Of a stretch of DNA of 64,000 nucleotides, positions 123-55,953 are shown one piece after another. The notes under the pieces are model-generated. The model searched no databases and was not told where the DNA came from. It was given only the letters and a program-made list of their open reading frames with translations. The stretch is from Candidatus Uhrbacteria bacterium (GTDB lineage Bacteria; Patescibacteriota; Patescibacteriia; GWA2-47-26). The position numbers and the translations under genes are program-made. The stretch's first letter is position 1, and the number at the start of each line of letters is the position of its first letter. The DNA lies in assembly GCA_016187515.1 (NCBI GenBank), contig JACPJN010000007.1:4046-68045 (forward strand). Direction: 5' to 3'.

Positions 123-1271
123 TTAGTAGCGCACCCCATAATTTTCCGGCACAATCTCAATCCAGGTTACTCCCGCGTTGAATTCCACCTCGTGTCCTTG
201 CGCGTCATACCAGCGCATCCGCTCGCGCGCACTCGGTTTTTTCCACACTCCGACCGTAACGCGGCCATCCTGAAATACCAGTCCTTTGCCTTCCCCCAGC
301 GTGGTAAATTCTTTGCGCCCCACGGCATCCAGAATTTTCATTTTCTGAAACGCCACCGCGATATTTTTGGCAATAATCTCTTTCCCGTTCGCGCCGCGAT
401 GCGCGCCATCCCATTGTATCCGCTTGTAGTGATTCTCAAATTTGTCGTAAAGCCACTGCGCACCATAGGGCGCGGCGTAGCCGATTTGAATATCATTCAC
501 ATCTCCGCGCAAATCCGGCGGAGCGTCGGATTTAAACTTCCAAACCCCCACTGTATCTCCCCCTTGGCGAGGGGGAGAAAGAGGGGGTGGAAAATTTTGG
601 TACGCCTTCTCCAGCAACTCCGTATTCGTATACAAATGGTGCGGTCTTGGCCGGCCATCTTTTGCGTAAAAATACTGCGGCTGATACCATTGATCCAAGT
701 CCTGCACGCCATCAACACTCTCCACACGCAACATATTGTAAGCCGCCGGCGAAGATCCCACATGCGCGAAAAGCGTATTAAACTCCGCGGCCCAGTCCAG
801 AAAGTAAGGCCGCGCGCTGCGCACCGGGCCGATTTCGATCGTGGTTTCCGCGTTGTTCCGCGTCAGGGCCGCTGGCACAGCCTTGGAAATTTGAGCGGCC
901 CCTGCGGCCCTTTGTTCCGCGTTGTTCCGCGGAGCCATGGTATACGTGGGTAGTACAAAATACCCCAAAAACCTCGTAATATTCGCTTCGGTCACCGCTT
1001 CAAACACCAGCGCCGCCTCCGCAATCCCCGAGATCGGCTGGGCCTCGATCATGTTTTCCACCAGCACCCCGGCGACCGGCGGATTCTCCTGGCCTTGTTC
1101 CACCATCATCCCGTCAATTGCCCGGCGCACTTTTGGCGTCTCCGCTATCACCGCCTCCTTTGAAACCTCATCCTGCCACGGACGAATCACCCACATCAAA
1201 ACAAAAACAGCCGTGACGATGATCACCGCTATCCCAAGCTCCTTTTTCCGGTCTCTTTTTGTTTTTTTCAT
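123..1271 (-). CDS. DUF3048 (YerB-like) domain protein, N-terminal membrane anchor
   Basis: ORF 123..1358; probable start at MKKTKRDRKK preceded by GGAGG; N-terminal TM helix; motif PISGIAEAALVFEAVTEANITRFLGYF typical of DUF3048; carries an in-frame REP-like insertion (~540-600) and TRNNAE tandem-repeat insertion (841-930). Confidence 0.55.
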   Translation of the reverse strand: MKKTKRDRKKELGIAVIIVTAVFVLMWVIRPWQDEVSKEAVIAETPKVRRAIDGMMVEQGQENPPVAGVLVENMIEAQPISGIAEAALVFEAVTEANITRFLGYFVLPTYTMAPRNNAEQRAAGAAQISKAVPAALTRNNAETTIEIGPVRSARPYFLDWAAEFNTLFAHVGSSPAAYNMLRVESVDGVQDLDQWYQPQYFYAKDGRPRPHHLYTNTELLEKAYQNFPPPLSPPRQGGDTVGVWKFKSDAPPDLRGDVNDIQIGYAAPYGAQWLYDKFENHYKRIQWDGAHRGANGKEIIAKNIAVAFQKMKILDAVGRKEFTTLGEGKGLVFQDGRVTVGVWKKPSARERMRWYDAQGHEVEFNAGVTWIEIVPENYGVRY

Positions 1272-1492
1272 ATTCCTCCATTTCCATTTTTCCCCTCCAC
1301 TGGCGGAGGCGCCGATGCGCGGCGTTTCCGAATGAGGACCCTTGCGCAGCCCCGCCATTGTATTGTTTTCTTTTAAGATGCAACCGATTGGCGGGGCGAG
1401 CAGGAGCGCAGCGGGGATATTCGTGAATGAGAGAAAATGGTTACGCTGACGCGTGTCCGAAGAGGAAATGCCGCGTGGCGGTGCCGGAGCAA

Positions 1493-2623: not shown

Positions 2624-2686
2624 ACGCCACGCTGCACTTTGTGCTACACTAAACTTGTCCACAAGGACAGAAAGGAGAGAAATCCC

Positions 2687-2946: not shown

Positions 2947-2972
2947 CCACACGGCTACCCGCTCTTCCACGC

Positions 2973-3016
2973 ACCCCGGCAACGCATCTGCATCACGCGT
3001 CGCCGGGTTTTTTTAA
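2973..3016 (+). terminator. rho-independent terminator (copy 1 of duplicated module)
   Basis: ccccggcaacgc...gcgtcgccggg hairpin followed by ttttttt; the same ~55-nt module recurs at 4090-4147. Confidence 0.6.
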
Positions 3017-3019
3017 TCT

Positions 3020-4089: not shown

Positions 4090-4147
4090 CTACGCTCTTC
4101 CACGCACCCCGGCAACGCATCTGCATCACGCGTCGCCGGGTTTTTTT
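4090..4147 (+). terminator. rho-independent terminator (copy 2 of duplicated module)
   Basis: gctcttccacgcaccccggcaacgcatctgcatcacgcgtcgccgggttttttt, identical to 2960-3016. Confidence 0.6.
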
Positions 4148-4168
4148 AATTTTTTCCTCCTCTCCACT

Positions 4169-6414: not shown

Positions 6415-6529
6415 AGTCTTGTATTGTAGCACAAAATGTGATATACTGGTATCTAGTAATCGACCCATGGTGTTATTGAGTGGTTATGTTATTGGATGTT
6501 CAATACTTAATAACTTAATCACTTACTAA

Positions 6530-8704
<2,175 letters not shown>

Positions 8705-8705
8705 A

Positions 8706-8800
8706 ACGGAACACCCCCTCTCGCTCCCCCTCATTAAGGGGGAGAAATCGACAAACAATTTCCTCCCCTTTTCAAGGGGAGGTTGGGAGGGGTCAGGCGG
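8706..8800. repeat. REP-like palindromic elements after gyrB
   Basis: ccccctctcgctccccctcattaagggggag...cctccccttttcaaggggaggttgggaggggtc. Confidence 0.7.
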
Positions 8801-8897
8801 AAACAATTGAATGTCTTACCGCCGGGGCTTGCCCCCGGCTTTTTGCTATGCTACACTCCCCTTAGCCGCACCTTCCACGCACAAAGGAGAAATCGCC

Positions 8898-9479: not shown

Positions 9480-9620
9480 ATCCCCCTCGCCCCGACTCGC
9501 TGTGAATTATGAGGGCGTCACGATTCGTAACCCCCTCTAACTCCCCCTTACCCTAAGGGGGAGAAAAATTTCATCCGTGATCCGTGGCTATCCTGTTCTC
9601 TATCCGCGGCTATCCGTAAC
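9480..9620. repeat. REP-like element with 3' extension gtgatccgtggctatcc...ctatccgcggctatcc
   Basis: aatccccctcgcccc...cgtaaccccctctaactcccccttaccctaagggggag followed by the extension; same composite at 21030-21212. Confidence 0.65.
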
Positions 9621-13017: not shown

Positions 13018-13124
13018 CTGTAATTCAATTTCTCCCCCTTAAGATAAGGGGGAGCTAGAGGGGGTTATGACAATCTCAAAAGCGGCCATAGGGCCGCTTT
13101 TCTCTACTTGCCGCTTGCTCATTG

Positions 13125-15450: not shown

Positions 15451-16008
15451 ATGGCAGTATCTCTTATTGCGGCGGTTTCCAAAAATGGAGTGATTGGAGC
15501 GAAAAATGATCTACCTTGGTATTTGCCCGAGGACTTAAAGCATTTCAAAATGCTGACCACGGGAAAAACCGTGCTCATGGGCCGCAAAACCTTTGAGTCA
15601 ATTTTGAAGCGTCTTGGAAAACCCCTGCCGAATCGGAAAAATGTGGTGGTGACAAGGGATGTACATTACGCCCCCCCACCTCAATCCTCCCCCACCAGGG
15701 GGGAGGAAGCTCCCAAAAATTCCCCTCCCCTTGTGGGAGGGGCTAGGGGAGGGGGTGAGGGTGTATGCCTGCACCACTCGGTTGAAGAAGCGCTTGCGCA
15801 CCACCAAGACGAGGAGATAATGGTGGCCGGCGGCGGAGAAATCTTCAAGCAGACCATTGACCGCGCCGACCGGCTCTACATCACCGAGGTACACAAGGAA
15901 GTTCCCGGCGACGTGTATTTCCCCGCGATTGATCCGAACACTTGGAGCGAAACCGCGCGCGAAGACCACGAAGAGTTTTCGTTTGTAACCTACATTCGTA
16001 ATTCGTAG
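15451..16008 (+). CDS. folA: dihydrofolate reductase with in-frame REP-like insertion
   Basis: MAVSLIAAVSKNGVIGAKNDLPWYLPEDLKHFKMLTTGKTVLMGRKTFESI is canonical DHFR; ~30-aa insert PPPQSSPTRGEEAPKNSPPLVGGARGGGEGV encoded by the GGGGAG palindromic repeat at 15671-15765. Confidence 0.85.
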   Translation: MAVSLIAAVSKNGVIGAKNDLPWYLPEDLKHFKMLTTGKTVLMGRKTFESILKRLGKPLPNRKNVVVTRDVHYAPPPQSSPTRGEEAPKNSPPLVGGARGGGEGVCLHHSVEEALAHHQDEEIMVAGGGEIFKQTIDRADRLYITEVHKEVPGDVYFPAIDPNTWSETAREDHEEFSFVTYIRNS

Positions 16009-17395: not shown

Positions 17396-17473
17396 CGCGA
17401 ATCCTTACGCCGCGAATCGCGCGAATTATTCGCGTCATTGGCGGGGCAAAGCCCATCCGCGCAATCCTCGCAT

Positions 17474-19012
17474 ATGAATTACGAAGCAATAATCGGATTG
17501 GAAATTCATGTCCAACTTAAAACCAAGAGCAAGCTTTTTTGCGGTTGTGATAATCGCGGAGAAGATGCTCCGCCCAATACCACCGTCTGTCCTGTCTGTA
17601 TGGGACACCCAGGGGTGCTACCGGTTTTGAACAAGCAAGCGCTGGAGTTTGGAATCATGGCCGGACTCGCGCTTAACTGTACCATTCCGGAAAAAGCGAA
17701 ATTTGACCGGAAAAACTATTTTTATCCGGATTTACCGAAGGGCTATCAGATCTCGCAGTTTGACGAACCGATTTGTGTAAATGGACTGGTATCCATTGCG
17801 GTGCCCACGGCACAGAAAGACGCGCGCAAAAACGCGGACATCCGCATCACCCGTATCCATATGGAAGAAGACGCGGCGAAAAGCACGCATGCGGACGGCA
17901 AGACCTACGTGGACTTCAACCGCGCCGGAACTCCGCTTATTGAGACCGTTACCGAGCCGGATTTCCGCTCCCCGCTCGAGGCCAAAACCTTTCTCCAGGA
18001 GTTGCGCCGCATTATGCGCTATCTCGGCGTCTCTGACGCGGACATGGAAAAAGGGCACCTGCGCTGCGATGCGAATATCTCGCTCCGCCCTACTAACCAA
18101 GCTCCCCCCCTTAATGTAAGGGGGGGCACGGGGGGGTTATACCCCAAAACCGAAGTAAAAAATATCAACTCCTTCCGCGCGGTTGAGCGCGCGCTTCAAT
18201 ACGAAATTCAGCGGCAAACCAAGCTTTGGGACGATGGCAAACCGCCTGCGATCACGACAACCCGCGGTTGGGATGATGTGCAAGGGATTACCGTTGAACA
18301 GCGCAGCAAAGAGGACTCTGCCGATTATCACTATTTCCCCGAGCCGGACTTGCCCCCCTTGCTTCTGCGCGAAGTGGTTGACCAAGTACGCGGCCGCATG
18401 CCGGAACTGCCGCGAGCGCGCCGGCTGCGTCTTGCGGAGGAATATGGGTTTTCCCCAGGCGAGACCATGATTTTAACGGAAGAGAAACCGCTGGCGGATT
18501 ATACCGAGCAGGTAATGACCGAGCTGCAAACCTGGATACGCGACCTGGAAGAAGACGGTACCGAGGAGGAGAAATGGGAACGCAACAAAAAGAAACTGAC
18601 CAAACTGTTTTCCGGCTGGTTTATCACTAAACTTTTCGGGCTAATGGAAAAACACGCCGTGGATATTCGCACCATAAAAATCACCCCGGAAAATTTTGCG
18701 GAACTGCTGACCATGATTCACGCCAATCGCGTAAACTCGACCGCGGCGCTGCAAATTCTGGAAGAAATGTTACTCACGGGCGGCGATCCCAGCCAGATCA
18801 TGGAGGAAAAAAAGCTTGAGCAGGTCTCCAATAACGAGGAAATCACGCCGATTGTGCAGGACGTAATCGCGGCTAATCCACAAGCCATCGCTGACTTCAA
18901 AGCTGGCAAAGCTAACGCCCTACAATTCCTGGTTGGCCAGGTCATGAAATCCTCTCGCGGCAAAGCCAACCCGGACCTCGCCCAAAAACTCCTAAAAAAA
19001 CTGCTCCGCTAA
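17474..19012 (+). CDS. gatB: aspartyl/glutamyl-tRNA amidotransferase subunit B, with in-frame REP-like insertion
   Basis: Start MNYEAIIGLEIHVQL; conserved GatB regions; insert NQAPPLNVRGGTGGL encoded by palindromic repeat at 18100-18145. Confidence 0.9.
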   Translation: MNYEAIIGLEIHVQLKTKSKLFCGCDNRGEDAPPNTTVCPVCMGHPGVLPVLNKQALEFGIMAGLALNCTIPEKAKFDRKNYFYPDLPKGYQISQFDEPICVNGLVSIAVPTAQKDARKNADIRITRIHMEEDAAKSTHADGKTYVDFNRAGTPLIETVTEPDFRSPLEAKTFLQELRRIMRYLGVSDADMEKGHLRCDANISLRPTNQAPPLNVRGGTGGLYPKTEVKNINSFRAVERALQYEIQRQTKLWDDGKPPAITTTRGWDDVQGITVEQRSKEDSADYHYFPEPDLPPLLLREVVDQVRGRMPELPRARRLRLAEEYGFSPGETMILTEEKPLADYTEQVMTELQTWIRDLEEDGTEEEKWERNKKKLTKLFSGWFITKLFGLMEKHAVDIRTIKITPENFAELLTMIHANRVNSTAALQILEEMLLTGGDPSQIMEEKKLEQVSNNEEITPIVQDVIAANPQAIADFKAGKANALQFLVGQVMKSSRGKANPDLAQKLLKKLLR

Positions 19013-19185
19013 ATCCCCCTCCCTTAGGGTAAGGGAGGGCGGGGTGGGTTACGAAAATTTTCCTCCCCTGCCCGCGATTTTCCCCCCTGTCCCGATTCTC
19101 GAGAATCGAGGATCCTCGGCCGCAGCCGGGACCCGAGGGGGGATTAAGGGGGGTGGGAGCAAAGGAGGGGTCACACTATCACATC
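19012..19185. repeat. cluster of GGGGAG-type palindromic REP-like elements
   Basis: ccccctcccttagggtaagggagggcggggtgggttacgaa and further G/C-run inverted repeats between gatB and miaA. Confidence 0.7.
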
Positions 19186-20111
19186 GAAAACTTTTTCACG
19201 AGGCGCGCGGCTTCTTTTTTGCTGCGCACCCACACAATCCGCTTATCCCTCCGAAACCACGTCATCTGCCGACGGGAAAAATCTTTAATCGCGTGCGATA
19301 ATGCATCTACCATTGTTGTCAAATTCTCACGATCGTGAGAATTTGACGGTCGCTTTTTTGATTGCAGTCGGCGTAAATAATGACTCATATACCGATATTC
19401 GAGGCCGAATGATTCAAGGCGTTTCCAGGAAATGCCTTGGCGGTGCAAGCGCATCGCTTCCCCCATAAGCCCCTGCTTCAAGCGCGCCTTTAGGCGAGCG
19501 TCAATGCGTTTGTTAAGCACATCTCGTGGCACGGCAAGCCCGATCATTAATACCTTATAAGACGGCGCGTGTTTTTCGCGCTGTTTTGAAAGCGGCACTC
19601 CTGTGGCCAGACAAATCTCAATTGCCCGCTCCAGACGCCGGCGATTGTTTTTATCAATGACACGATATGTGGCAGGGTCTAATTTTTTTAATTTCGCACT
19701 TAATTTCTTCGTGCTCAATCGCGCAAGTCGCGCCCGCAACTTAAAATCCGGTGGCGCATCCGGCAGAACATATCCGTCCACTACCGCCTGCACATAAAGT
19801 CCGGTCCCGCCCACGAGAATCGGCAATTTCCCGCGCCCCAAAATATCCTCAATCGCCCGATACGCCCGCTTTTGATACTGCGCCAAGGTAAAATTCGTCT
19901 TGGGGCTTACCACATCAATTAAATGATGCCGCACGGCCCTATGCCCTTTGCCATAAGCCCTAAGCTCCTTCCCCGTCCCAATATCCATCCCGCGATACAC
20001 CTGCCGGGAATCTGCTGATACAATCTCGCCATTAAAACGCCGCGCCAAATCAACCGCGAGTTTGGTTTTCCCCGACGAAGTCGGACCGACAATAACAATA
20101 ATTTTTTGCAT
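19179..20111 (-). CDS. miaA: tRNA dimethylallyltransferase
   Basis: Start MQKIIVIVGPTSSGKTKLAVDLA (P-loop), conserved MiaA body. Confidence 0.9.
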   Translation of the reverse strand: MQKIIVIVGPTSSGKTKLAVDLARRFNGEIVSADSRQVYRGMDIGTGKELRAYGKGHRAVRHHLIDVVSPKTNFTLAQYQKRAYRAIEDILGRGKLPILVGGTGLYVQAVVDGYVLPDAPPDFKLRARLARLSTKKLSAKLKKLDPATYRVIDKNNRRRLERAIEICLATGVPLSKQREKHAPSYKVLMIGLAVPRDVLNKRIDARLKARLKQGLMGEAMRLHRQGISWKRLESFGLEYRYMSHYLRRLQSKKRPSNSHDRENLTTMVDALSHAIKDFSRRQMTWFRRDKRIVWVRSKKEAARLVKKFSM

Positions 20112-20127
20112 ATACAACTCAATCACC

Positions 20128-20420
20128 CCTCTTAAGATAAGAGGGGGTAGGGGGAGTTATGAACTATGTACATCTCGTAACCCCCTCTAACTCCCCCTTA
20201 CCCTAAGGGGGAGAATTTGATTGATTGTACCACAAAAAAAGAAAGGGCGCCCCGAAGGGAACCCGTGGAACACACTGCTTGGGTGGAACACCCTCACCCT
20301 ACCCTCTCCCATCAAGGGAGAGGGATTGCCCTTTTGCTTCCTCTCCCCTTTGTGGGAGAGGATTGAGGTGAGGGGGGCCCTACCGCGTTTCCCAGCCAAA
20401 ACGGCGCTGGAGCGCGCGGA
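20128..20420. repeat. cluster of REP-like palindromic elements
   Basis: cccctcttaagataagagggggtagggggagttatgaa...cgtaaccccctctaactcccccttaccctaaggggga and more copies to ~20420; tracked ORFs 20187..20552 and 20221..20607 here are artefacts. Confidence 0.7.
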
Positions 20421-20952: not shown

Positions 20953-21029
20953 GATGTACACCTCCACCCAAACCTTATCACAAATCCCCGTTTCCGTCAA
21001 GGGCCAGGGCGTGGTAGAATACAACAAAA

Positions 21030-21212
21030 CTCCCCTCTTAAGATAAGAGGGGTTGGGGGGAGTTATGAAGCGGTCGTAACCCCCTCCACTCCCACCCCCT
21101 CTTAATCTCCCCCTCCCGCCAGAGGCGAGGCTCGCCAGAGGCGGCGGGCAGGGGGAGAAAATTGGTTAATCTGTGATCCGTGGCTTATCCGTCATCTATC
21201 CGCGGCTATCAG
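21030..21212. repeat. REP-like element with 3' extension (gtgatccgtggcttatcc...ctatccgcggctatc)
   Basis: Same composite structure as 9480-9620. Confidence 0.65.
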
Positions 21213-23059: not shown

Positions 23060-23170
23060 CCCTTTCAAATTCTCCCCCCTTAGGGTAAGGGGAGGTTGGG
23101 AGGGGTTACGAACCGTGCAAAGCTCATAACCCACCCTCGCCCTCCCTTATCTTAAGGGAGGGAATTCCAT
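23060..23170. repeat. REP-like palindromic element pair
   Basis: cccccccttagggtaaggggaggttgggaggggttacgaa...cccaccctcgccctcccttatcttaagggaggg. Confidence 0.7.
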
Positions 23171-34936: not shown

Positions 34937-37447
34937 TTAATCTCGCACCTTAGCATCAAACCTCTCTTTTAGCATGCGAGACAATTTTATGTGCACCTTC
35001 TCCGCTTCTTGCGCCGTCAGCGTTCGCTCGGCCGAGGCATACTGGATATGAAACGCCAGACTACGGTGTCCCTCCGGCACGCCCTTGCCTGCATACTGAT
35101 CAAACAGTTCCACGCCGGCAATGAGCGGATCAAGTTTGGCAATCGCGCCATGAATCACGGCGTACTCTTTTTCTTTGCTCACTACAAAGGCAATGTCACG
35201 CTTGACCGGCGGATACGCCGGAGGCGGCTCATACGCTCGGCCTTGACCAATCAGCGGATAGACCACGCGCATTTCCCACTCTAAAAACGCAACCCGCTGC
35301 TCTATGCCATAAGCCCTAAGCAATTGTGGATGAAGTTCACCCACTACCCCCAGTATATCACGCCCGGATTTTACGAGCAATACGCGAGAGGGGTGGTAAT
35401 GCTTGACCCACGGCGCCTTAATTGACCCGACTTTTTCATATCCAAAATTTGGCAAGGCCAAAACTTCCGCCAAATGTTCGGCCACGCCTTTTGCCGCGTA
35501 AAAATGCGCACCCTCGCGTTCTTCGCGCCCGGCACTCAACACAATGAGCTTTTGTCGTTCGTCGGGTAATTCTCCCGCACGAGGATGATATTCGCTCGAC
35601 AATTCAAACAATTTCAACTCATCCCGCGTTTTTTCATTTTCCGCCACAGCTTTGAGGAGCGAAATTCCCAGCCACGGCCGCATGTGCGCCATCTCGGAGG
35701 TCAAAGGATTGGCAAGCGCCAGCGCGTCGCGGTCCGGATCAAACCCGGCGCGCGCAACACTATCGCGAGCAACAAATGAATAGGTGTAAAGTTCGGTAAA
35801 TCCTGCGCCGCGCAACGCCTCCTTCACTTCGTGTTCGTGCGTAAATTGCACACTTTGTATCTCGAAAGGAAGATCGCCTTGTGGAAGCACACCGGGAATC
35901 CTGTGATATCCATACATCCGCGCGACTTCCTCGGCAATATCCGCAACCCCGTCCGCTTCAACCTCGCGCCAATACGGAAATTTTACGCCCCACTTTTTTG
36001 CGCCTCCCGATACGGAAAACCCAAGCGCGGTTAAATATTTTTTCATTTGCGGCGCCGGAATTTCCACGCCGATTTTCTTCGCCACCTCCACAGGCGCGAC
36101 TTTCACCGTTTTTCCTCCCCTTAAGGTAAGGGGAGGCGAGGAGGGGTTATGCCGATCCACCATCCCCACCACCTTCCCTCCGGCAATCTCGGCGGTCAAC
36201 TCCATCAATCGCGCCGCCGCAAACTCCGGCAACGGCACAGGCAATCCTTTATTAAACCGCACAGAACTCGCCGAGGTAAGCCCAATCTGATGCTCGCCGC
36301 GGCGAATCGTGAGCGCATCAAAATTCGCAATCTCGTACACGATCCGCGTTGTCCCCGCGCGCACCCCGGTTTCTTCTCCGCCCATGATGCCGGCAATCGC
36401 CACTGGCCGCTGGGCATCAGCAATCACTAGAATATTTTCATCAAGTTCGTAGGTATTCCCATCTAATGCTAAAACCTTTTCCCCTTTCTTCCCCATCCGC
36501 ACCACTATTTTTTTCCGTGTCCCATCCGTTTTATTTCCGTGTCTTTCTGTGTTATGAAGACGCTCAGCATCAAAAGCATGACACGGCTGCCCATACTCTA
36601 GTAGTACATAATTCGTGATATCCACGATATTATTTATCGGCCGCACCCCAGAGGCCATAAGCCGCCGCTGTATCCACCACGGCGACGGCCCCACCTTCAC
36701 GCCTTCCATCACCACCGCCATGTACCGCGGACACAACTTTGGCACTTCAACTTTAACGTCCAACCAATCTCCTCCCCTTAGGTTAAGGGGAGGTCGGGAG
36801 GGGTTATGACCAATTTTCAATTTTACATTTTCAATTTTACATTTTACATTGAATATCGCCCCCACCTCGCGCGCCAACCCAACTATGCCCATAGCGTCCG
36901 GACGATTGGTTGTTATTTCCACCTCAAGTACCACATCATCTAATCCAAGTGCTCTAGCCACTGGCACACCCACGCGCGCGCCCGTGGCAGTCAAATCTAA
37001 AATCTCCCGCTCTTTGTGTGGAAACATTTCATATAGCCCAATCTCATTGGCCGCGCAAATCATGCCTTCACTTTTGACGCCACGAATTTCTGTCGGTGTT
37101 AATTCCATTGGTTCACCTTCTCCATGCCAGCGCACTTTTGCTCCCGGCAGAGCTACCGCCACCAACATTCCTTCTTTAATATTCGTTCCCCCACACACAA
37201 TAGTTCGTGGTCGTTCGTCTTTATTGTTCGTGGTCGTTCGTGCTATACGCAGCTTATCGGCATTTGGATGCGGCTCTATTTCCACAATCTTCCCGACTAC
37301 AATCGCCGGATCCAGTCCTACCACCATTGGCCGCATTCGCTCCACGGAAAACGCATGAAGCGACAAGCGCTCCGCCACTTCCTCTGGGCGGGCTTTAAGT
37401 CCTGGCAAAAACTCACGCAGCCAATTATAGGAAACCAATAGGTTCAT
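34937..37447 (-). CDS. pheT: phenylalanyl-tRNA synthetase beta subunit, with multiple in-frame repeat insertions
   Basis: 836 aa; tRNA-binding N-domain, B3/4, B5, FDX-ACB; inserts from REP elements (PPLNLRGG at ~36110-36150; SSPPLTLRGG at ~36770-36808) and tandem repeats (36815-36850, 37195-37250). Confidence 0.9.
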   Translation of the reverse strand: MNLLVSYNWLREFLPGLKARPEEVAERLSLHAFSVERMRPMVVGLDPAIVVGKIVEIEPHPNADKLRIARTTTNNKDERPRTIVCGGTNIKEGMLVAVALPGAKVRWHGEGEPMELTPTEIRGVKSEGMICAANEIGLYEMFPHKEREILDLTATGARVGVPVARALGLDDVVLEVEITTNRPDAMGIVGLAREVGAIFNVKCKIENVKLKIGHNPSRPPLNLRGGDWLDVKVEVPKLCPRYMAVVMEGVKVGPSPWWIQRRLMASGVRPINNIVDITNYVLLEYGQPCHAFDAERLHNTERHGNKTDGTRKKIVVRMGKKGEKVLALDGNTYELDENILVIADAQRPVAIAGIMGGEETGVRAGTTRIVYEIANFDALTIRRGEHQIGLTSASSVRFNKGLPVPLPEFAAARLMELTAEIAGGKVVGMVDRHNPSSPPLTLRGGKTVKVAPVEVAKKIGVEIPAPQMKKYLTALGFSVSGGAKKWGVKFPYWREVEADGVADIAEEVARMYGYHRIPGVLPQGDLPFEIQSVQFTHEHEVKEALRGAGFTELYTYSFVARDSVARAGFDPDRDALALANPLTSEMAHMRPWLGISLLKAVAENEKTRDELKLFELSSEYHPRAGELPDERQKLIVLSAGREEREGAHFYAAKGVAEHLAEVLALPNFGYEKVGSIKAPWVKHYHPSRVLLVKSGRDILGVVGELHPQLLRAYGIEQRVAFLEWEMRVVYPLIGQGRAYEPPPAYPPVKRDIAFVVSKEKEYAVIHGAIAKLDPLIAGVELFDQYAGKGVPEGHRSLAFHIQYASAERTLTAQEAEKVHIKLSRMLKERFDAKVRD

Positions 37448-37812: not shown

Positions 37813-38952
37813 CTAAAATTGTTCCAAAAAATTTAAGTCATTATTATACAACACCCTGATATCATCAATGCGCAAACCCTGCTTCATCATGTAGCTCCGC
37901 TCCACTCCAAACCCAAACGCAAATCCACTCCACACTTTTGGATCAAGTCCGCCTGCTTTTAAAACATTGGGGTGTACCATGCCGGCGCCAGCAAGCTCAA
38001 GCCAGCCGGACTTACAAAGTCTGCACTTCTCCCCTCCCCTTAAGGTAAGGGGAGGTTGGGAGGGGTTATGAACATAACCAGTGCCATGACACACGCCACA
38101 TGATACATCTACTTCAAACGACGGTTCGGTAAATCGAAAGTGAAACGGCCGCAAACGAATTCTACGCTCCGGCCCAAAAAAGACGCGCGCGAAATATTCA
38201 AGCGTTCCCTTCAAATGCGTCACTGCGACATTCCGATCAATGAGGAGTCCTTCAAACTGATGAAACATCGGCACATGCGACACATCTGATTGCCTACGAT
38301 AACACTTAGCCAGGTTGATCATCCGAATCGGCGGCTTGCGTCGTTCCATCTCGCGCACTTGGCCATTGGAAGTATGCGGTGTAAGCACCATTTTTCCAAA
38401 CTTTGGATGCTCAATGTAATTTCCGCGTTGTTCCGCGATATGCTCTAGCGAGACGTTCCGCGTGGTTCCGCGACCTACAAAATAGGTCTCCCACTCATCC
38501 CGCGCTGGATGTCCCTTCGGCATGTTCAACGCCTCAAACGCATAATAATCCCAATCTACCTCCGGATACCGCATCCGATAAAATCCCAACTGCGCGAAAA
38601 TCCGGGTAATCTCCTCAATCGCCTGGGTCGTAATATGCAAATGCCCCAGCGGCGGCCGCGTCCCCGGAAGCGTCACATCCAGTTTCTCTTGCTCCGCCAG
38701 CTTGCCCAGCGCCACACCTTCCAACTCTTTTACGTGTTGTTGTAGTGCTGTCATGATGTACTGCTTTAGTGTATTCAACTCCTGTCCCGCTTTTTTCCGC
38801 TCCTCGCCTTTCATTTCCGCAAGTTCGGAAAATAATCCGGTCATGGTTCCTTTTCTTCCCAAAAATTCAATACGCACAGCCTCAAGCCCGGCCGCGTCAC
38901 GCGCCGCCTCAATCTTCTTTTTCACGATGTTCTCAATTTCCTTAAGGTCCAT
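37813..38952 (-). CDS. pheS: phenylalanyl-tRNA synthetase alpha subunit, with in-frame REP-like and tandem-repeat insertions
   Basis: 379 aa; class II catalytic core; insert HNPSQPPLTLRGGEKCRLC from REP at 38030-38072; gttccgcg tandem repeats at 38400-38470. Confidence 0.9.
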   Translation of the reverse strand: MDLKEIENIVKKKIEAARDAAGLEAVRIEFLGRKGTMTGLFSELAEMKGEERKKAGQELNTLKQYIMTALQQHVKELEGVALGKLAEQEKLDVTLPGTRPPLGHLHITTQAIEEITRIFAQLGFYRMRYPEVDWDYYAFEALNMPKGHPARDEWETYFVGRGTTRNVSLEHIAEQRGNYIEHPKFGKMVLTPHTSNGQVREMERRKPPIRMINLAKCYRRQSDVSHVPMFHQFEGLLIDRNVAVTHLKGTLEYFARVFFGPERRIRLRPFHFRFTEPSFEVDVSCGVCHGTGYVHNPSQPPLTLRGGEKCRLCKSGWLELAGAGMVHPNVLKAGGLDPKVWSGFAFGFGVERSYMMKQGLRIDDIRVLYNNDLNFLEQF

Positions 38953-38964
38953 ACAACAACTTTT

Positions 38965-39005
38965 TCTCCCCCTTAGGCTAAGGGGGAGTTAGAGGGGGTT
39001 ACGAA
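38965..39005. repeat. REP-like palindromic element
   Basis: ctcccccttaggctaagggggagttagagggggttacgaa. Confidence 0.7.
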
Positions 39006-39116
39006 ACTAAATTATACCCTCCCCCACATTCCCTCCATCATACACGATTACACTTGACAAAACAACTCCGCCATGCGACAATACACATACCTGTCAGAAA
39101 ACCACGGAGGAACGCC

Positions 39117-39995: not shown

Positions 39996-40031
39996 TGTCC
40001 CAAAATCTCACGGCCGTGAGATTTTGGGACA
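39996..40031. repeat. 36-bp perfect palindrome TGTCCCAAAATCTCACGGCCGTGAGATTTTGGGACA (copy 1)
   Basis: Exact inverted repeat followed by aatttttgttttg; identical copies at 40991, 41807, 42915, 46695. Confidence 0.85.
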
Positions 40032-40990: not shown

Positions 40991-41026
40991 CCGCATCCGA
41001 TTGTCCCAAAATCTCACGGCCGTGAG
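40991..41026. repeat. 36-bp perfect palindrome (copy 2)
   Basis: Identical to copy 1. Confidence 0.85.
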
Positions 41027-41092
41027 ATTTTGGGACAATTTTTGTTTTGCGATCCTCGTCAAGTGGATAACTCCCCCCTTTCTACATCCCTC

Positions 41093-41806: not shown

Positions 41807-41842
41807 TGTCCCAAAATCTCACGGCCGTGAGATTTTGGGACA
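41807..41842. repeat. 36-bp perfect palindrome (copy 3)
   Basis: Identical sequence; between convergent cassette C and PaaX-like gene. Confidence 0.85.
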
Positions 41843-42914: not shown

Positions 42915-42950
42915 TGTCCCAAAATCTCACGGCCGTGAGATTTTGGGACA
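42915..42950. repeat. 36-bp perfect palindrome (copy 4)
   Basis: Identical; upstream (gene sense) of PaaX-like gene, beyond a ~260-nt GC-rich leader. Confidence 0.85.
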
Positions 42951-44328: not shown

Positions 44329-45153
44329 CTACAGCCTTGCGGCTTTAAGATTAATGGACATTCCGAGCCATTTTTCCGCCAGTTCCTGAAATTTCGGCGT
44401 TTTTTTGCTGACATAGAATTCGTGTTTCGGAGCACTCATAACTCCCCTAACCCCTCTTACCTTAAGAGGGGAATCCGATTGATCGTTCCTCCCCTTAAGG
44501 TAAGGGGAGGCAGGAGGGGTTATGAACTGTTGAACTTCACGCGCCACCGTCTCCGCCGAATCCACGAGCTGCACACGATTGCCCACAATATCAGCAATCA
44601 CGCCTTTAAGCCAGGGGTAATGCGTACACCCTAAAATAAGCGTATCAACCTGCGCGCGCTGAAACGGCGCAAGATACTGCTCCGCCACTTCATAGGTCGT
44701 CGGATGCACCAAGCGCCCAGCTTCAACCAGCGGAACGAACAAGGGACATTCCCGGGCATTAATGCCGCGGCACCATTTTTGATACGCGCCGCTTTGCACA
44801 GTGGTCCGCGTGCCAATTACTCCAATCCGGCCATTATGTGTCCGGCGCAGCGCTTCGCGCACGGCCGGAGTAATCACTTCAAAAATCGGCACGCTGGGAA
44901 ATTCCTTGCGCAACGCTAATCCCGACACCGCGGAGGCCGTATTGCAGCCCACCACAATCATTTGCGCTTTTTTCTTTAGTAAAAACTTCGCGTTTTGCAG
45001 CGCGTAGCCCGCCACGGTCTCCGGCGGCTTATTGCCGTACGGCGTTCGCGCCGTATCGCCAAAATAAATAATTTTCTCGCGGGGTAGCGCCGCCATTACG
45101 GCTTTCGCCACGGTCAATCCGCCGAGTCCTGAATCGAAAATTCCGATTGTCAT
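44329..45153 (-). CDS. murI: glutamate racemase with in-frame REP-like insertions
   Basis: IGIFDSGLGGLTVAKAV, GCNTAS, GCTHYP motifs; inserts DSPLKVRG(VRG) encoded by REP copies at 44440-44528. Confidence 0.85.
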   Translation of the reverse strand: MTIGIFDSGLGGLTVAKAVMAALPREKIIYFGDTARTPYGNKPPETVAGYALQNAKFLLKKKAQMIVVGCNTASAVSGLALRKEFPSVPIFEVITPAVREALRRTHNGRIGVIGTRTTVQSGAYQKWCRGINARECPLFVPLVEAGRLVHPTTYEVAEQYLAPFQRAQVDTLILGCTHYPWLKGVIADIVGNRVQLVDSAETVAREVQQFITPPASPYLKGRNDQSDSPLKVRGVRGVMSAPKHEFYVSKKTPKFQELAEKWLGMSINLKAARL

Positions 45154-45950
45154 AGAACCCCAAGCCAAGAGCGAATAAATTGTTTTGTCTGCTTTGGACC
45201 GGAAACCGCAATGCACTTAACTCCAGTACGGCGCACGGCAAAGTCGTTGCCACCGGGAAATAACGCATCGCCGATAAATAACATCTGCCGTTTTGGAACA
45301 TGTAAATGTTTTTCAATCTGTCGTATCCCATAGGCCTTATCAATACCCTTTTTGGTCACATCAATGGAGGTATAACCCGCAGCACGAACTTCCAAGTTCG
45401 GTAAACGACGCTGCAGAGCGCGCGCGAGTTTCATTTTAATCTTTTTATTCCCTGCCAGCCACTGCTTTTTAAGTTCTACCCCGCGCTGACCTAAGGACGC
45501 GACAATTTCCTGTCCCAAAGCGGAAAAAGTCACTTGCGTGCCGCGATCTTCAATCACCGAGCCATAAACCTTCTTGGGATGCACATAACCAACTTCTCTG
45601 AATGCCTCTTGGAAAGCTTTGCGGATCGCCTGTTTTTCTCTTTTGGTAAGTTTCAATTCATACACCTTTTTCCATCCAGACGCGTAACGATAAAAAGCCG
45701 TGGCCGTGGTGGGAAACAGAAAAAGATTTCCCAGCAACTTTGTTGGCGCGCGCAAATGACCGATAAATTGACTTTTAAAAACGTCGTATTTGCCGCCGCC
45801 GATAACCGCCACTATTTTCTTTTTTAATAGTGCCTTAAGCAGTCCCGACATCTCTTTATCCATTGGGGATTTGGTCTCGGTAAGCGTCCCGTCCAAGTCA
45901 AACACAATAAGCGTTTGCTTGATTAGATCGGCATCTTGGCGGGCTTGCAT
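45150..45950 (-). CDS. HAD-superfamily hydrolase (IIB-like)
   Basis: Motif I LIVFDLDGTLTE, motif IV FIGDALFPGGND. Confidence 0.65.
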   Translation of the reverse strand: MQARQDADLIKQTLIVFDLDGTLTETKSPMDKEMSGLLKALLKKKIVAVIGGGKYDVFKSQFIGHLRAPTKLLGNLFLFPTTATAFYRYASGWKKVYELKLTKREKQAIRKAFQEAFREVGYVHPKKVYGSVIEDRGTQVTFSALGQEIVASLGQRGVELKKQWLAGNKKIKMKLARALQRRLPNLEVRAAGYTSIDVTKKGIDKAYGIRQIEKHLHVPKRQMLFIGDALFPGGNDFAVRRTGVKCIAVSGPKQTKQFIRSWLGVL

Positions 45951-46694: not shown

Positions 46695-46730
46695 TGTCCC
46701 AAAATCTCACGGCCGTGAGATTTTGGGACA
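46695..46730. repeat. 36-bp perfect palindrome (copy 5), with extended imperfect arms 46683-46740
   Basis: Between convergent lemA and 46914..47525 gene. Confidence 0.85.
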
Positions 46731-46913: not shown

Positions 46914-47525
46914 CTACTGCGCCGCGGCGACCGGCGCGGTCAGGTCGCGATGCTGGACGTGATACAGGCGCCAGAGCGTAAGGATCGTGAGCACTCCTTC
47001 GACGACGACAACCACTCCCCACACCGTCCTACCCAGCATCAAAATACCAAAGAGCGTAACCGCCCCCACTCCGAAGATCGCAATCGCCCACCCGTACGGT
47101 ACACCCAACAACGCATCTGCGGAGGGGGCGAGGACGAGGGCGAAGACGAAGGCGACAACAACGAAGACGTAGATGGCGGTACCGATGGCACCGACGGTGT
47201 CGACGGCGGCGATGGTGGCGGTGGTGGTGGCGGTGGTTTCGAGGGCGAGGGCGATGGTGGCGGCGAAGATGGCGACGATGGTGGTGGCGGTGGTGGCGAA
47301 GATGGCTGCGGCGGCGCGGAAGGCGACAACGACGACGGCGAAGGCGGTGGCGATGATGGCGGAGGCGGCGGTGGCCTCCTCCTGACTCGCATTTGCCAGA
47401 AGAGCGATGTGGTACGCTCCTGCCGCTACCAGGAGCCCGCTGATTGTGAAAAGAACGATTTTCTTCATCGTTATACCCTGCTTTCTTTTGTTTTGGGTTT
47501 GGGAACGATAATCCTTATATACCAC
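46914..47525 (-). CDS. low-complexity Ala/Thr/Val-rich polytopic membrane protein (hypothetical)
   Basis: Signal/TM MKKIVLFTISGLLVAAGAY; body encoded by (GGY/GCC)n simple-sequence DNA 47160-47400; TTGACA-N17-TATATA promoter just upstream (47516-47544, minus strand); other frames also open so frame choice rests on promoter and N-terminal signal. Confidence 0.4.
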   Translation of the reverse strand: MVYKDYRSQTQNKRKQGITMKKIVLFTISGLLVAAGAYHIALLANASQEEATAASAIIATAFAVVVVAFRAAAAIFATTATTIVAIFAATIALALETTATTTATIAAVDTVGAIGTAIYVFVVVAFVFALVLAPSADALLGVPYGWAIAIFGVGAVTLFGILMLGRTVWGVVVVVEGVLTILTLWRLYHVQHRDLTAPVAAAQ

Positions 47526-47564
47526 ACTTTCGACATATTGTCAAGTTTGGGGTACAATATGATG

Positions 47565-47642
47565 TGTACGAATTACGAATCATCGTACGAATACAACGAA
47601 TTCGTAATATTCGTGCAACATTCGTTGATTCGTACACAAATA
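47565..47642. repeat. TACGAAT palindromic element forming the htpX leader
   Basis: tgtacgaattacgaat...cattcgttgattcgtacacaaat then ATG; terminal inverted repeats TGTACGAAT/ATTCGTACA. Confidence 0.7.
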
Positions 47643-48532
47643 TGTACTCCCAAATCACCTCCAATAAACGCAAAACCTGGCTGCTCATCATAATTTTCCT
47701 CGCCGTGGTGCTGGGGATTGGGTATTTGTATGACTATCTTTACGGCTATGGATCGGGTGGGCTGATTTTTGCCGCAGTGATTGCACTGGTTATGGCGCTT
47801 ACCGGCTACTACTCTGGCGATAAGCTGGCGCTTGCCGTCTCCGGCGCAAAGCCCGTAACCCGCGAACAAAACGCTTATCTTTGGCGCCTGGTAGAAAATC
47901 TTTGCATTTCTCAAGGTCTGCCTATGCCGCGGCTACACATTATTCAAGATAGCGCCATCAACGCGTTTGCCACTGGCCGGGATCCCAAACATGCTTCGGT
48001 AGCGGTAACCACCGGCGCGCTTGAAAAACTGGAAAACGAAGAACTGGAAGGCGTGCTCGCTCACGAACTTTCACACGTAAAAAATTATGACATCCGGGTC
48101 ATGACGATTGTGATTGTGCTGGTTGGCATTGTGGCGCTGGTTTCCGACTGGATGCTGCGCATGCATGTGTTTGGTTTAGGCGGACATCGTGGCGGCCGTG
48201 ATCGCGGCGTACACCCGCTCTTTCTGGTGGTCGGCATCATTCTTATGGTACTTGCTCCGCTGATCGCCCAGCTTATCAAACTCGCGGTCTCGCGCCGCCG
48301 CGAATATCTGGCCGATGCTTCCGGCGCGCTGATGACGCGCTATCCGGAAGGGCTGGCGCGCGCACTTCAAAAAATCGGCGCGCAAAAACAGCCAATGCTT
48401 CGCGCCAATGAAGCCACCGCGCACCTTTATATTGCCAACCCTTTTGGAAGCACACGCAAATGGCTTACCCAGGCCTTCTCGACCCACCCGCCAATTGAAG
48501 AACGCGTAAAAATTTTAAGACAAATGGCTTGA
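47643..48532 (+). CDS. htpX: M48-family zinc metalloprotease HtpX
   Basis: Start MYSQITSNKRKTWLL; HELSHV HExxH; TMs; ATG directly after TACGAAT palindromic element. Confidence 0.85.
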
Positions 48533-53249: not shown

Positions 53250-53556
53250 GGTCTTTCCTTTCCTCTTCCTTTGTTTGACTGCTTTCCCCCTTCTCACGCG
53301 GCAAGCGCAGTCCGGGCTTTTCCGCGTGTTTTTTGCGCGCCTTTTTTTGAATTAGCCAAAGCCCTCCTTTGGTTTTGCTGCGGCGCGAGCGTGAAATTGA
53401 CTCTCCCGAATACTGAAGTTAACAGGGATGGCAGCCCTGCACCCCTAAAGTATTCAATCAATTTCCGTGCTCACGATCTCCCGCGCCAAGCGTGAAAAAG
53501 CGCGAATACGGAAAAGTTGAACCTATTCTACAATAGACGATTAAAATTGTCAATAC

Positions 53557-55953
53557 TTACTCCAAATGCGCCTTTCCTTCTTTTTGCATAATCTCGGCCC
53601 GTAATTGTGGATAACTGCGCAACTCCGGATCCTGGGCAAGCAACTCCTGTGCGGCCGCTTTGGCCGCTTTGGCAATCTCGACATCCGCAAAAGAGGCAAT
53701 TTTGAACTCCGGGAACCCGGACTGGGCGGTTCCGCTATAGATTTCCCCTGGGCCGCGCAGTGCTAAGTCGCGCTCGGCCAGCTCAAAACCGTTGTCACAC
53801 TCTAAAAACGCCTTAAGGCGTGCCGGACCCCTCCTCACCTCCCCTTCTCCTCCCGAGGCGGATCCGCCTTGGGCGGAAAAAGGGGAGGAAATTTCCCCCC
53901 CTGCCCGAGGGGGGGTTCGGGGGGGTGGGAGATCATCCACCATCAGCAAACAATACGATTGCGCCTCTCCGCGCCCGACTCTACCCCTAAATTGATGCAG
54001 TTGTGCCAAACCAAAATTCTGTACCCCTTCGATCACCATGACGGTAGCATTCGGAACATCAATGCCCACCTCAATCACGGGAGTGGCCACCAGGATATCA
54101 ATCCTGCTCATTTTGTCATTCTGAGCCGGAGGCGAAGAATCCCGTCCACCACGAGAATCACGGGATCCCTCGCTTGCGCTCGGGATGACAGAAGCGAATT
54201 CCTCCATCACTTTCTCGCGTTCTTTGCTCTTCATCCGGCCATGCAAAAGTCCTACGTGCAAATCTGGGAATATGTCATTTTTCAAATGCTCAAACACTTC
54301 GGTGGCGGCTTTGACTCCTAGGGTGTCGGAGGGATCAATAATCGGACAAGTCCAAAATACCTGATGGCCGGCGGCAACTTGCCCGCGCACAAAGTCATGA
54401 GCTTGTTCGCGGGACCAGACCGCATCCTCACCCTGCCCCCCTCCCCTAACCCCTCCCACCAAGGGAGGGGGATTTGTTTTTACTCCCTCTCCCCTTGTGG
54501 GAGAGGGCGGGGGTGAGGGGTGGTCCGCCACCAAAATCGTCTCAATCCTCTGCCTCCCTTTCGGCATTTCTTTGAGCACCGAGATATCCAAATCGCCATA
54601 AAACACGAGCGCTAAACTGCGCGGAATTGGCGTGGCGGTCAGCGTGAGCAAATGCGGCATCAGACCGTCGCCGCGTTTTTCTTTAAGCGCCGCGCGCTGG
54701 GAAACCCCAAACCGATGCTGTTCATCCACAACCGCGAGCACCAGATTTTTAAACTTCACGCCGCCCTGGATTAGCGCGTGGGTGCCAACGATTACATCCG
54801 CCTCGATCAGTTGCTTCTTTCTTTTCTCCTCTCCGATGCGCAAAGCAATCGTAATTCCCTGCGGTTCCAGAAATTTTGAAAATGTCTTAAAATGTTGGCG
54901 CGCCAAAATCTCGGTCGGCGCCATAATCGCCACTTGCCCCCTCGACGCTAGACCCTCGACGCTAGACCCTAAAACGGCATTGAGCGCCGCAATCGCCACC
55001 ACCACGGTTTTCCCCGATCCCACCTCTCCTTCCAGGAGACGATTCATAGGGTGAACGAATTGAACTGAACTACCGTTGTTTAGTTGTTGAGTTGTTCGGT
55101 TGTTCAGTTCTTTGCGGCCACTCATATCGCAAAGAATCTCCCACGCGGCCTTGCGCTGATCATCAGTCAACTGGAACGGAAGTCCTTCCACGAACTTTTT
55201 AGTCACCGCTTCGTGAAATTCTACCTCGGGCGCCGAAATTTTTTTCAGCTCGCGCTTGAGGGACACCGCGAATAATTGCAAACGCAGTAATTCATCAAAC
55301 TTCAGCCGCCGGCGGGCCTCCTCCAGCTTGGCTTCATCCGGCGGGAAATGTATCGCGGTAAGCGCCTGCGGAAGGTGGGTCAACCCATAGCGATCCTTAA
55401 TCGCAACCGGAAGCGGATCCGGCACGCTTCGCGCAAGCGGAAGCGCCTGACGCACTAAAAACCGGATCTGCTTTTGCGATAACTTTTCAGTGGAGGGATA
55501 GACCGGCACCAGCCGCGCCGCATGCGTCGCGGGGCGTTTACTCACCTTCTCATACATCGGCGAGGAAAGATAAAGTCCGCTCCCTTCATCTTTCGCGTAC
55601 CCGACGAGATAAACTTCATCGCCGGATTTAAACATTTTCGCGACCCACGGCTGATTAAACCAAACCACGCGTACCGACCCGGTCCCGTCCCCCACCACGG
55701 CCTGGGTAAGCAGCTTGCGTTTCCACTTGCTTCGCGCGCTTTCAATCAGCTCCACTCTCCCGCGCACCACCACCCGCTCCCCGGGACGCACCGCTTTTAT
55801 TTCCGTCAGGCGAGAAAGATCGTCCCAGCGCGAGGGAAAATAAAAAAGAAGGTCCTGGGCGGTAAGGACCCCAAGGTGACGTAACTGGGAGGCAACTTTC
55901 GCGCCAATATGGGACAGTTCCGTGACAGGACTTGATAATATAGCCCGGATCAT
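53557..55953 (-). CDS. recG: ATP-dependent DNA helicase RecG with multiple in-frame repeat insertions
   Basis: 798 aa; wedge/OB N-domain, helicase motifs (GSGKT, DEQHRFG, TATPIPR), C-terminal domain; inserts from REP elements at 53828-53932 and 54428-54522, a second hairpin element at 54100-54190, and tandem repeats at 55060-55110. Confidence 0.9.
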   Translation of the reverse strand: MIRAILSSPVTELSHIGAKVASQLRHLGVLTAQDLLFYFPSRWDDLSRLTEIKAVRPGERVVVRGRVELIESARSKWKRKLLTQAVVGDGTGSVRVVWFNQPWVAKMFKSGDEVYLVGYAKDEGSGLYLSSPMYEKVSKRPATHAARLVPVYPSTEKLSQKQIRFLVRQALPLARSVPDPLPVAIKDRYGLTHLPQALTAIHFPPDEAKLEEARRRLKFDELLRLQLFAVSLKRELKKISAPEVEFHEAVTKKFVEGLPFQLTDDQRKAAWEILCDMSGRKELNNRTTQQLNNGSSVQFVHPMNRLLEGEVGSGKTVVVAIAALNAVLGSSVEGLASRGQVAIMAPTEILARQHFKTFSKFLEPQGITIALRIGEEKRKKQLIEADVIVGTHALIQGGVKFKNLVLAVVDEQHRFGVSQRAALKEKRGDGLMPHLLTLTATPIPRSLALVFYGDLDISVLKEMPKGRQRIETILVADHPSPPPSPTRGEGVKTNPPPLVGGVRGGGQGEDAVWSREQAHDFVRGQVAAGHQVFWTCPIIDPSDTLGVKAATEVFEHLKNDIFPDLHVGLLHGRMKSKEREKVMEEFASVIPSASEGSRDSRGGRDSSPPAQNDKMSRIDILVATPVIEVGIDVPNATVMVIEGVQNFGLAQLHQFRGRVGRGEAQSYCLLMVDDLPPPRTPPRAGGEISSPFSAQGGSASGGEGEVRRGPARLKAFLECDNGFELAERDLALRGPGEIYSGTAQSGFPEFKIASFADVEIAKAAKAAAQELLAQDPELRSYPQLRAEIMQKEGKAHLE

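Follow-up and report, generated by a model that had tools for sequence, protein, structure and literature searches.

Triplex-motif mini-elements of the BoxC/PIT/TMECO kind in a Candidatus Uhrbacteria genome, many of them in frame in housekeeping genes, and a possible DUF559 nuclease partner

A 64-kb stretch of a metagenome-assembled genome (MAG) of Candidatus Uhrbacteria (Patescibacteria), hereafter the window, raises the question of what kind of short G-rich repeat can be scattered between the genes of a bacterium and also lie, without breaking the reading frame, inside several of its housekeeping genes. An earlier note on this DNA had described at least 17 copies of an imperfect palindrome, regarded it as a repetitive extragenic palindromic (REP)-like element of a new sequence family, and likened its genic copies to the Rickettsia palindromic elements (RPEs). 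The host, which we take to be a groundwater bacterium with a tiny and very compact genome, has a G+C content of ~52% in the window. A motif count over the 64 kb gave 29 hairpins of the CCCCT..AGGGG type versus 1.7 expected, and a repeat finder together with an nhmmer search using a seed profile recovered 17 strong copies and several weaker ones, lying where the note had placed them. With a purpose-written three-arm finder, which accepts perfect units of seven triplets (7-nt arms), 25 units were detected in the window, versus none in 20 first-order Markov simulations used as controls. The units are ~40 to 45 nt in size, occur at a density of ~0.4 per kb, are present either alone or in inverted pairs that join two subtypes, and divide into two sequence families, a main one (family 1, n = 19) and a BoxC-like one (n = 6). 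Each of the intergenic sites named in the note (8706-8800, 9480-9595, 13025-13065, 19012-19185, 20128-20420, 21030-21165, 23060-23170, and 38965-39005) contains at least one unit. A cyanobacterial origin, suspected from GCGATCGC sites, was rejected: the window has only 6 copies of this site, and its PheS shows 100% identity to a protein of Candidatus Uhrbacteria. The coordinates of the units are listed in Table 1.

The anatomy of the element was examined in 246 copies without mutual overlap, drawn from the window and from 113 other loci; 208 of these copies were parsed. Family-1 units consist of a C-rich arm 1, TTAnnnTAA, a G-rich arm 2, 2 to 4 nt, a G-rich arm 3, and TTA(YGAA). Throughout the parsed units, arm 2 can pair with arm 1 as its reverse complement, and arm 3 repeats arm 2 in mirror image, a relation kept in at least eight arm types, including GGGGAGG/GGAGGGG, GAGGGGG/GGGGGAG, GGGGGAG/GAGGGGG, GGGAGGG/GGG[AT]GGG, GAGAGGG/GGGTGAG, GAGGAGG/GGAGGAG, GGGGAAG/GAAGGGG, and GGGGGGA/AGGGGGG. 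The arm 3 base that faces an A of arm 2 is A or T in each arm type tabulated. These relations are the ones by which an antiparallel triple helix of the purine motif pairs (G.G-C, A.A-T, and T.A-T). The 25 perfect 7-nt units fall within the definition of a class II purine motif (three blocks, stems of 6 to 15 nt, and loops of 1 to 6 nt), the first loop of family 1 being 3 nt when TTA and TAA are counted as stem, and the triplet rules of that class (a Watson-Crick purine arm and an antiparallel third arm) hold for the 208 parsed units and the at least eight arm types. The second family has a TTGTG or TTGAT loop and the same three-arm plan (the BoxC-like doublets of Table 1). What had been described as a plain imperfect palindrome is thus a pyrimidine arm followed by a purine arm and its mirror image, and its copies, real as repeats, belong to two families, one with the loop TTAnnnTAA and one with the BoxC-like loop TTGTG.

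When 161 units were aligned in register, information content fell to zero just beyond the segment that begins with arm 1 and closes with the TTA following arm 3. In folding of single-stranded DNA, the unit at 38027-38077, which stands alone, gave a hairpin of -12 kcal/mol on either strand, and doublets folded at -25 to -28 kcal/mol, with z values of -4.7 and -6.5. Other structures were considered and set aside. A hairpin between arms 1 and 3 is feasible only in some A-type copies with G.T wobble and not in the other types, and an outer stem formed by the two arms 3 of a doublet is possible but imperfect and cannot account for single units. The G-tracts are compatible with a G-quadruplex, but a quadruplex has no need of mirror symmetry, and the same is true of a protein site.

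A repeat with this three-arm plan has been described in Escherichia coli. Holder et al. 2015 (PMC4666352) equated BoxC with the PIT elements (Hoyne et al. 2000) under the name TMECO, a class II purine-motif intrastrand triplex motif of the form CCCTCNCCC N3-6 GGGNGAGGG N3 GGGNGAGGG; TMECO oligonucleotides form the triplex in vitro as single-stranded DNA, as determined by circular dichroism and nuclear magnetic resonance. In MG1655 (4.6 Mb) there are 23 copies, "always" intergenic, their inverted pairs always join type A with type B, and the element is absent from Salmonella (PMC4666352). The window units resemble TMECO in having a C-rich arm, a G-rich arm, and a mirror G-rich arm separated by loops of 3 to 6 and ~3 nt, and in being highly conserved, multicopy, and arranged as inverted doublets of A and B subtypes. 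Pairing of different types was found at 8713/8755, 20119/20172, 23066/23119, and 44436/44485 and at many of the other loci. One unit in recG matches the published TMECO pattern exactly, the other five BoxC-like units deviate from it by one or two positions or in loop length, and the 19 family-1 units lie outside it. Unlike TMECO, the window elements reach 25 copies per 64 kb in a Patescibacteria MAG, which by simple arithmetic is ~80 times the density in E. coli; about half of them are genic and in frame, and the main family has 7-nt arms and a TTAnnnTAA loop. Rather than a new REP-like family, the units have the BoxC/PIT/TMECO plan, and on sequence grounds we assign the second family to the BoxC/TMECO element and the main family to a sister family with shorter arms. 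Rfam returned no family at the gathering threshold on any unit, detecting the tmRNA and tRNAs only, and literature searches gave nothing relevant on the repeat sequence strings, the inserted peptides, or DUF559 (see below) in connection with repeats.

Long open frames contain 12 of the 25 perfect units: one in DUF3048, two in DHFR, one in GatB, two in PheT, one in PheS, two in MurI, and three in RecG. The host genes were identified by NCBIfam, except DUF3048, which was identified by Pfam, and their frames are open on both sides of each unit. The in-frame copies that the earlier note had reported for these seven proteins are therefore confirmed, and the two it had counted in RecG are both present, joined by a third at 53889-53926. 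Alignment with homologues of solved structure, one of the checks proposed in the note, bears out lineage-specific insertion. PheS shows a 17-residue gap in the homologue at the insert, between two CxxC pairs; Aquifex GatB has a 10-amino-acid (aa) gap; the homologues of PheT have smaller gaps at its inserts, and that of MurI also has a gap; ~28 residues of DHFR are inserted between positions 68 and 72 of the homologue chain; and RecG carries inserts of ~35 and ~30 residues. Stop codons in the loop restrict where a unit can be read through: TAA or TAG occurs in two of the three frames of a forward unit and in one or two frames of a reverse unit. We infer that only copies falling in an open frame could persist in genes. 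In reverse frame, the unit (e.g., 38033-38065) encodes ..PPLTLRGG, which resembles the LRLRGG C terminus of ubiquitin-like proteins, probably by a coincidence of TTAAGGGGAGG.

The PheS site was compared among 19 PheS sequences of 60 to 84% identity. It is empty in P0002, P0003, P0009, P0014, P0017, and P0019, holds one unit in the window protein and two units in P0004 and P0005, and has other, different-looking fillings in P0006, P0008, P0010, and P0011; an empty allele and a doublet allele were also compared at the DNA level. Because the site is empty, single, double, or differently filled among relatives, its inserts are lineage specific and recurrent at a hot spot, and neither ancestral linkers nor signs of a pseudogene. 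Other lineage-specific inserts that are not triplex units were seen in RecG at aa 280-300 (~55053-55116) and aa 589-615 (~54109-54189) and in PheS at aa 160-186 (ELNNRTTQQLNNGSSVQFVH; VIPSASEGSRDSRGGRDSSPPAQNDKMS), where different repeat-like peptides occur in the relatives of PheS.

The elements extend well beyond this genome. A search of a species-representative genome collection with an exact 33-nt pattern (27 specified positions) found the family-1 core in at least 113 stretches, which belong to several phyla. Among the matches listed were Desulfobacterota (Geobacter, Desulfuromonadaceae, and Desulfobulbaceae), Nitrospirota, Thermodesulfovibrionia, Gammaproteobacteria MAGs, many Patescibacteria lineages, and Kapaibacterium. 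The main family is not specific to the lineage of the window. Of the 60 copies in candidate phyla radiation (CPR) sources, among them the window, 11 were genic and in frame, as were 10 of the 186 in other loci; host genes elsewhere encode, for example, TsaD, glutamate dehydrogenase, PrmC, a PfkB kinase, and glycosyltransferases. The exact 33-nt pattern was also present in 9 putative viral contigs (IMG/VR), which could be prophage flanks or true phage copies.

All-against-all clustering of 2279 open reading frames (ORFs) from the 113 loci revealed a sole recurrent ORF family overlapping the units, a protein of ~125 aa found in 6 loci of different phyla, with a fragment in a seventh. It belongs to Pfam DUF559 (PF04480; E ~1e-35), is annotated by JGI as 'very-short-patch-repair endonuclease', and has 3HRL, a structural-genomics "endonuclease-like protein", as its only solved relative. 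The geometry of these genes is constant: the gene follows a B-type unit, its ATG standing just past or in the TTA tail of that unit, and a reverse A-type unit forms the 3' end, the TAA of its loop being the stop codon. Among the 120 homologues closest to one such protein, about two-thirds have C-terminal tails translated from a unit, ..TPPxLPL[STL] or ..NPSxPPL[TKN]. Loci picked by the DUF559 protein alone again had an upstream doublet and the stop codon in the loop, with a downstream doublet too in 2 of the 4 examined; at one protein-picked locus, the downstream doublet is followed by the remnant of a second DUF559 5' end. A link to a DUF559 gene is not mentioned in PMC4666352.

The E. coli element shows a similar arrangement. 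The DUF559 gene of E. coli K-12, ycjD, ends ..RRSPSP* in a degenerate reverse BoxC with its TGA in the loop, and TMECO #9 of Holder lies 168 nt downstream of the gene. Among the 120 nearest homologues of YcjD, about 95, including those of Enterobacter, Klebsiella, Kluyvera, Lelliottia, and Leclercia, end ..PSP[RQ]PSP, the translation of a reverse type-B BoxC; in Enterobacter asburiae, the DUF559 stop codon lies in the loop of a B(-) unit and an A(+) unit follows 10 nt on. That two DUF559 clades each have their own repeat family points to a specific relationship and argues against chance adjacency. In the K-12 sequence, the ycjD 3' end is partly duplicated (..ETVLENIRQGLNR..) at 1351240-1351420, between ycjD and TMECO #9, and some E. 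coli annotations read through ycjD into longer proteins whose final residues, PLAPLGRGLG, are translated forward BoxC.

The gene is single copy and is carried by 3378 of 5426 complete E. coli genomes. We used a chimeric query (ycjD plus TMECO) to evaluate a spread sample of 59 chromosomes plus IHE3034, a strain with one TMECO in Holder's tables and without ycjD between fabI and sapF. Chromosomes with ycjD (n = 37) had 11 to 30 further TMECO places (median, 20), compared to 1 to 24 (median, 7) in those without it (n = 22), and a one-sided Mann-Whitney test gave a P value of 1.3e-7 with kinship ignored. No Salmonella protein was found among the named YcjD homologues; set beside the reported absence of TMECO from that genus, this is suggestive only.

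Vsr, the very-short-patch repair endonuclease, recognises G.T, and free-standing homing endonucleases of a Vsr-like kind exist. DUF559 resembles Vsr in its small nicking-type nuclease fold and, unlike Vsr, is found without a cognate cytosine methyltransferase, intron, or intein context. Inspection of the sequences indicates that an A unit folded against a B unit would have one G.T and one A.C mismatch per arm pair. It is a speculation that the G.T of such an A/B foldback would be a Vsr-type lesion, which would fit a partnership with DUF559. A further parallel lies in the REP/REPIN elements (REPINs being paired REPs), which Nunvar and colleagues in 2010 and Bertels and Rainey in 2011 reportedly described together with the REP-associated tyrosine transposase (RAYT), an enzyme of the Y1/HUH type. 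As with REPIN and RAYT, short hairpins in inverted doublets flank a single-copy, chromosomally fixed gene for a small nuclease, and genomes without that gene have fewer copies; unlike RAYT, the partner here is a Vsr-like PD-(D/E)XK protein and not an HUH enzyme, and the stop codon of its gene lies inside the element.

Several explanations could be offered for these repeats. Dispersed, short, hairpin-forming sequences that often lie in inverted pairs, as REPINs and bacterial interspersed mosaic elements (BIMEs) do, might be ordinary miniature inverted-repeat transposable elements (MITEs) or REPs, that is, non-autonomous insertion sequence (IS) derivatives moved by a classical transposase (DDE or HUH/Y1 RAYT), with the triplex symmetry incidental; in-frame genic copies are known for RPEs and for some MITEs. 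This account is quite unlikely, given that conservation ends at the edge of the 40-nt unit, that neither the terminal inverted repeats nor the target-site duplications of an IS-derived MITE were seen in the 161 aligned units, that no recurrent transposase or Y1 gene flanked by repeats was found at the units of the 113 loci, DUF559 standing alone, and that A/T-tolerant mirror covariation is unexpected for a transposase binding site. Selection by the host for a structural or regulatory signal, such as a terminator, an mRNA stabiliser, a replication or recombination signal, or a G-quadruplex, with DUF559 a mere neighbour using its terminator, would agree with the stability of the hairpins (z -4.7 to -6.5 for the doublets), with the conservation of the core sequence across phyla, with G-tracts that could form quadruplexes, and with the way in which intergenic copies hug genes (13026 after dUTPase, 19011 at the GatB stop, and 38959 before pheS). 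We regard it as unlikely all the same. Units stand in both orientations within genes, where such signals would harm; a quadruplex leaves the mirror covariation with arm 1 unexplained; Rfam gave no family at its gathering score; and the presence or absence of units at the PheS site among relatives argues for insertion rather than conserved function. PIT elements, moreover, acted neither as promoters nor as terminators, and RNA does not form purine-motif triplexes (PMC4666352).

That the genic segments are ancestral low-complexity linkers, or assembly or frameshift artefacts of a MAG, is hardly credible; the earlier note had named ancestral linkers and frames disrupted by sequencing errors as conditions that would undo its claim. 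The source is indeed metagenome assembled and the inserted peptides are of low complexity. However, the same nucleotide unit recurs in intergenic DNA and in seven unrelated genes, the segments are absent from homologues in the Protein Data Bank (PDB) and from close relatives, the frames are intact on both sides, and in-frame copies of the same kind occur in independent assemblies from other projects. This alternative is already contradicted. The likeness to RPEs, for its part, holds as a functional analogy. Ogata and colleagues are said to have described RPEs in 2000 as 100- to 150-bp palindromic elements, restricted to Rickettsia, a host with a reduced genome, and inserted into its housekeeping genes without loss of frame. 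Both kinds of short repeat would add tolerated peptide segments to such proteins; the comparison, made by description rather than against an RPE consensus, otherwise shows an unrelated sequence, a three-arm triplex plan that RPEs lack, a ~40-nt unit, and hosts in Uhrbacteria and several further phyla.

We therefore favor, as somewhat better than an even chance, the view that the repeats are triplex mini-elements of the BoxC/PIT/TMECO kind that were copied across a compact genome and tolerated in genes, with DUF559 perhaps needed for their copying or maintenance. The best supported part of this view is that triplex-motif mini-elements of a known kind are densely present and that housekeeping genes tolerate many of them in frame. 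A single strand could fold back as a hairpin whose groove takes up a third strand (G.G-C, A.A-T, and T.A-T triples), and units would be copied into many genome sites. Those landing in genes would survive if a stop-free frame runs through the unit, the loop TAA or TAG falling in other frames, if the unit length preserves the frame, and if the added 10 to 35 residues, rich in Pro, Gly, Ser, Leu, and Arg, come to lie in a tolerant loop. The DUF559 endonuclease, with its gene between doublets as RAYT lies between REPINs, may be needed for copying or maintenance. More tentatively, and with somewhat less than an even chance of being right, triplex-motif doublets and DUF559 (YcjD-like) nucleases may form a widespread REPIN-RAYT-like partnership acting on triplex or mismatch foldback DNA, in which the dispersed copies, among them those that come to lie in frame in essential genes of compact genomes, would owe their creation or upkeep to the nuclease.

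Several observations weigh against this view. The TMECO triplex was undetected in double-stranded DNA and by in vivo dimethyl sulfate (DMS) footprinting, and no transposase or integrase was found near TMECOs (PMC4666352). By tblastn, the 64-kb window contains no DUF559 gene. The correlation between ycjD and TMECO number is confounded by phylogeny, B2 strains lacking both, and some genomes without ycjD retain 14 to 24 TMECO copies. The target-site duplications that the earlier note had suggested looking for, like terminal inverted repeats, were not seen in the 161 aligned units, a boundary analysis made without exact empty sites from near-identical strains; with neither of these and no evidence of recent copies, mobility is deduced from distribution only. 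Placement of the PheS insert in a surface loop, as the note had expected of the inserts, is weakly supported because AlphaFold gave a PheS model of no more than moderate quality (mean predicted local distance difference test [pLDDT] score, 67.7), with low confidence at the insert.

Table 1. Triplex-motif units and doublets in the window
Feature	Position	Strand	Units, encoded peptide, or remark
Triplex unit in DUF3048 gene (123-1358, -)	546-586		Hairpin flanked on both sides by mirror arm; encodes PPLSPPRQGGDTVG
Intergenic head-to-head doublet	8713-8802		Unit (-) 8713-8748, unit (+) 8755-8802
Single family-1 unit, intergenic, adjoins SpoU methylase gene	9521-9569	-	
Single family-1 unit directly 3' of dUTPase gene	13026-13076	+	
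BoxC-like head-to-head doublet in frame in DHFR (15451-16008, +)	15671-15757		~28 aa added: PPPQSSPTRGEEAPKNSPPLVGGARGGGEGV
Family-1 unit in frame in GatB (17438-19012, +)	18097-18146	+	Encodes APPLNVRGGTGG
Family-1 unit, GGGAGGG/GGGTGGG type	19011-19060	+	Overlaps GatB stop codon
Tail-to-tail pair at miaA start	20119-20220		Unit (+) 20119-20167, unit (-) 20172-20220
BoxC-like head-to-head doublet, intergenic	20285-20378		
Single family-1 unit, GAGGGG/GGGGGAG type	21025-21072	+	
Tail-to-tail pair downstream of ThrRS	23066-23166		Unit (+) 23066-23116, unit (-) 23119-23166
Family-1 unit in frame in PheT (34937-37447, -)	36109-36157	+	Encodes HNPSSPPLTLRGG
Family-1 unit in frame in PheT	36763-36815	+	Encodes HNPSRPPLNLRGG
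Family-1 unit in frame in PheS (37813-38952, -), between two CxxC pairs	38027-38077	+	Encodes HNPSQPPLTLRGG
Single family-1 unit, intergenic, just upstream of pheS start	38959-39009	+	No open frame across
Head-to-head doublet in frame near MurI C terminus (44329-45216, -)	44436-44530		
All-G triplex unit (CCCCCCC..GGGGGGG..GGGGGGG) in 30-aa RecG insert	53889-53926	+	
BoxC-like head-to-head doublet in frame in RecG (53557-55953, -)	54427-54522		54485-54519 is an exact E. coli TMECO pattern

Single family-1 units number 8 on the plus strand and 1 on the minus strand, and GC skew is negative across the entire window; the asymmetry may reflect a strand or replication bias, the numbers being small and the genic copies constrained by frame. 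The window also holds other repeats. A perfect 36-nt palindrome, TGTCCCAAAATCTCACGGCCGTGAGATTTTGGGACA, is present at 39996-40031, 41002-41037, 41807-41842, 42915-42950, and 46695-46730, with its core also at 22362-22385 and a variant at 19321-19344; its copies are spaced ~1 kb apart and partly share flanks, and terminator-like segments are repeated at 39796, 40894, and 41744. Tandem octamers of the AACTTAAT and GTTATTGA types were found at 6503-6550, 60206-60246, 60626-60665, 61134-61269, 62775-62830, and 63107-63200, clustering around the tmRNA gene (60668-61106), and similar AATTTTCA/AATTTTAC octamers at 36806-36850 adjoin a triplex unit and are translated within PheT (KCKIENVKLKIG). The final 17 nt of tRNA-Arg(GCG) (55985-56058) start a 94-nt tandem repeat of 2.3 copies (56041-56258), and the 3' end of this tRNA is thus present three times; the repeat may be the scar of an integration site. 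A 58-nt terminator-like sequence is present in identical form at 2960-3017 and 4093-4150, 1.1 kb apart, and an ORF at 46950-47693 consists mostly of GGC/GAY codon repeats that encode a Gly/Asp-rich, low-complexity protein.

BoxC/PIT/TMECO elements have been known since the 1990s, to our knowledge without an origin, a mobility mechanism, or a partner protein, and DUF559/YcjD is a very large orphan protein family. Common in-frame insertion in genes, a near-identical 33-nt core in many phyla, and DUF559 genes embedded in the elements look new. The recurrent physical link between repeat and DUF559, seen with two repeat families and from E. coli to Patescibacteria, provides a testable hypothesis for both orphans. 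Furthermore, triplex motifs lying in frame in aminoacyl-tRNA synthetases, RecG, GatB, MurI, and DHFR represent a second, phylogenetically broad case of the phenomenon known from RPEs, with a bearing on the annotation and structure prediction of candidate-phyla proteins and on the origin of new peptide segments.

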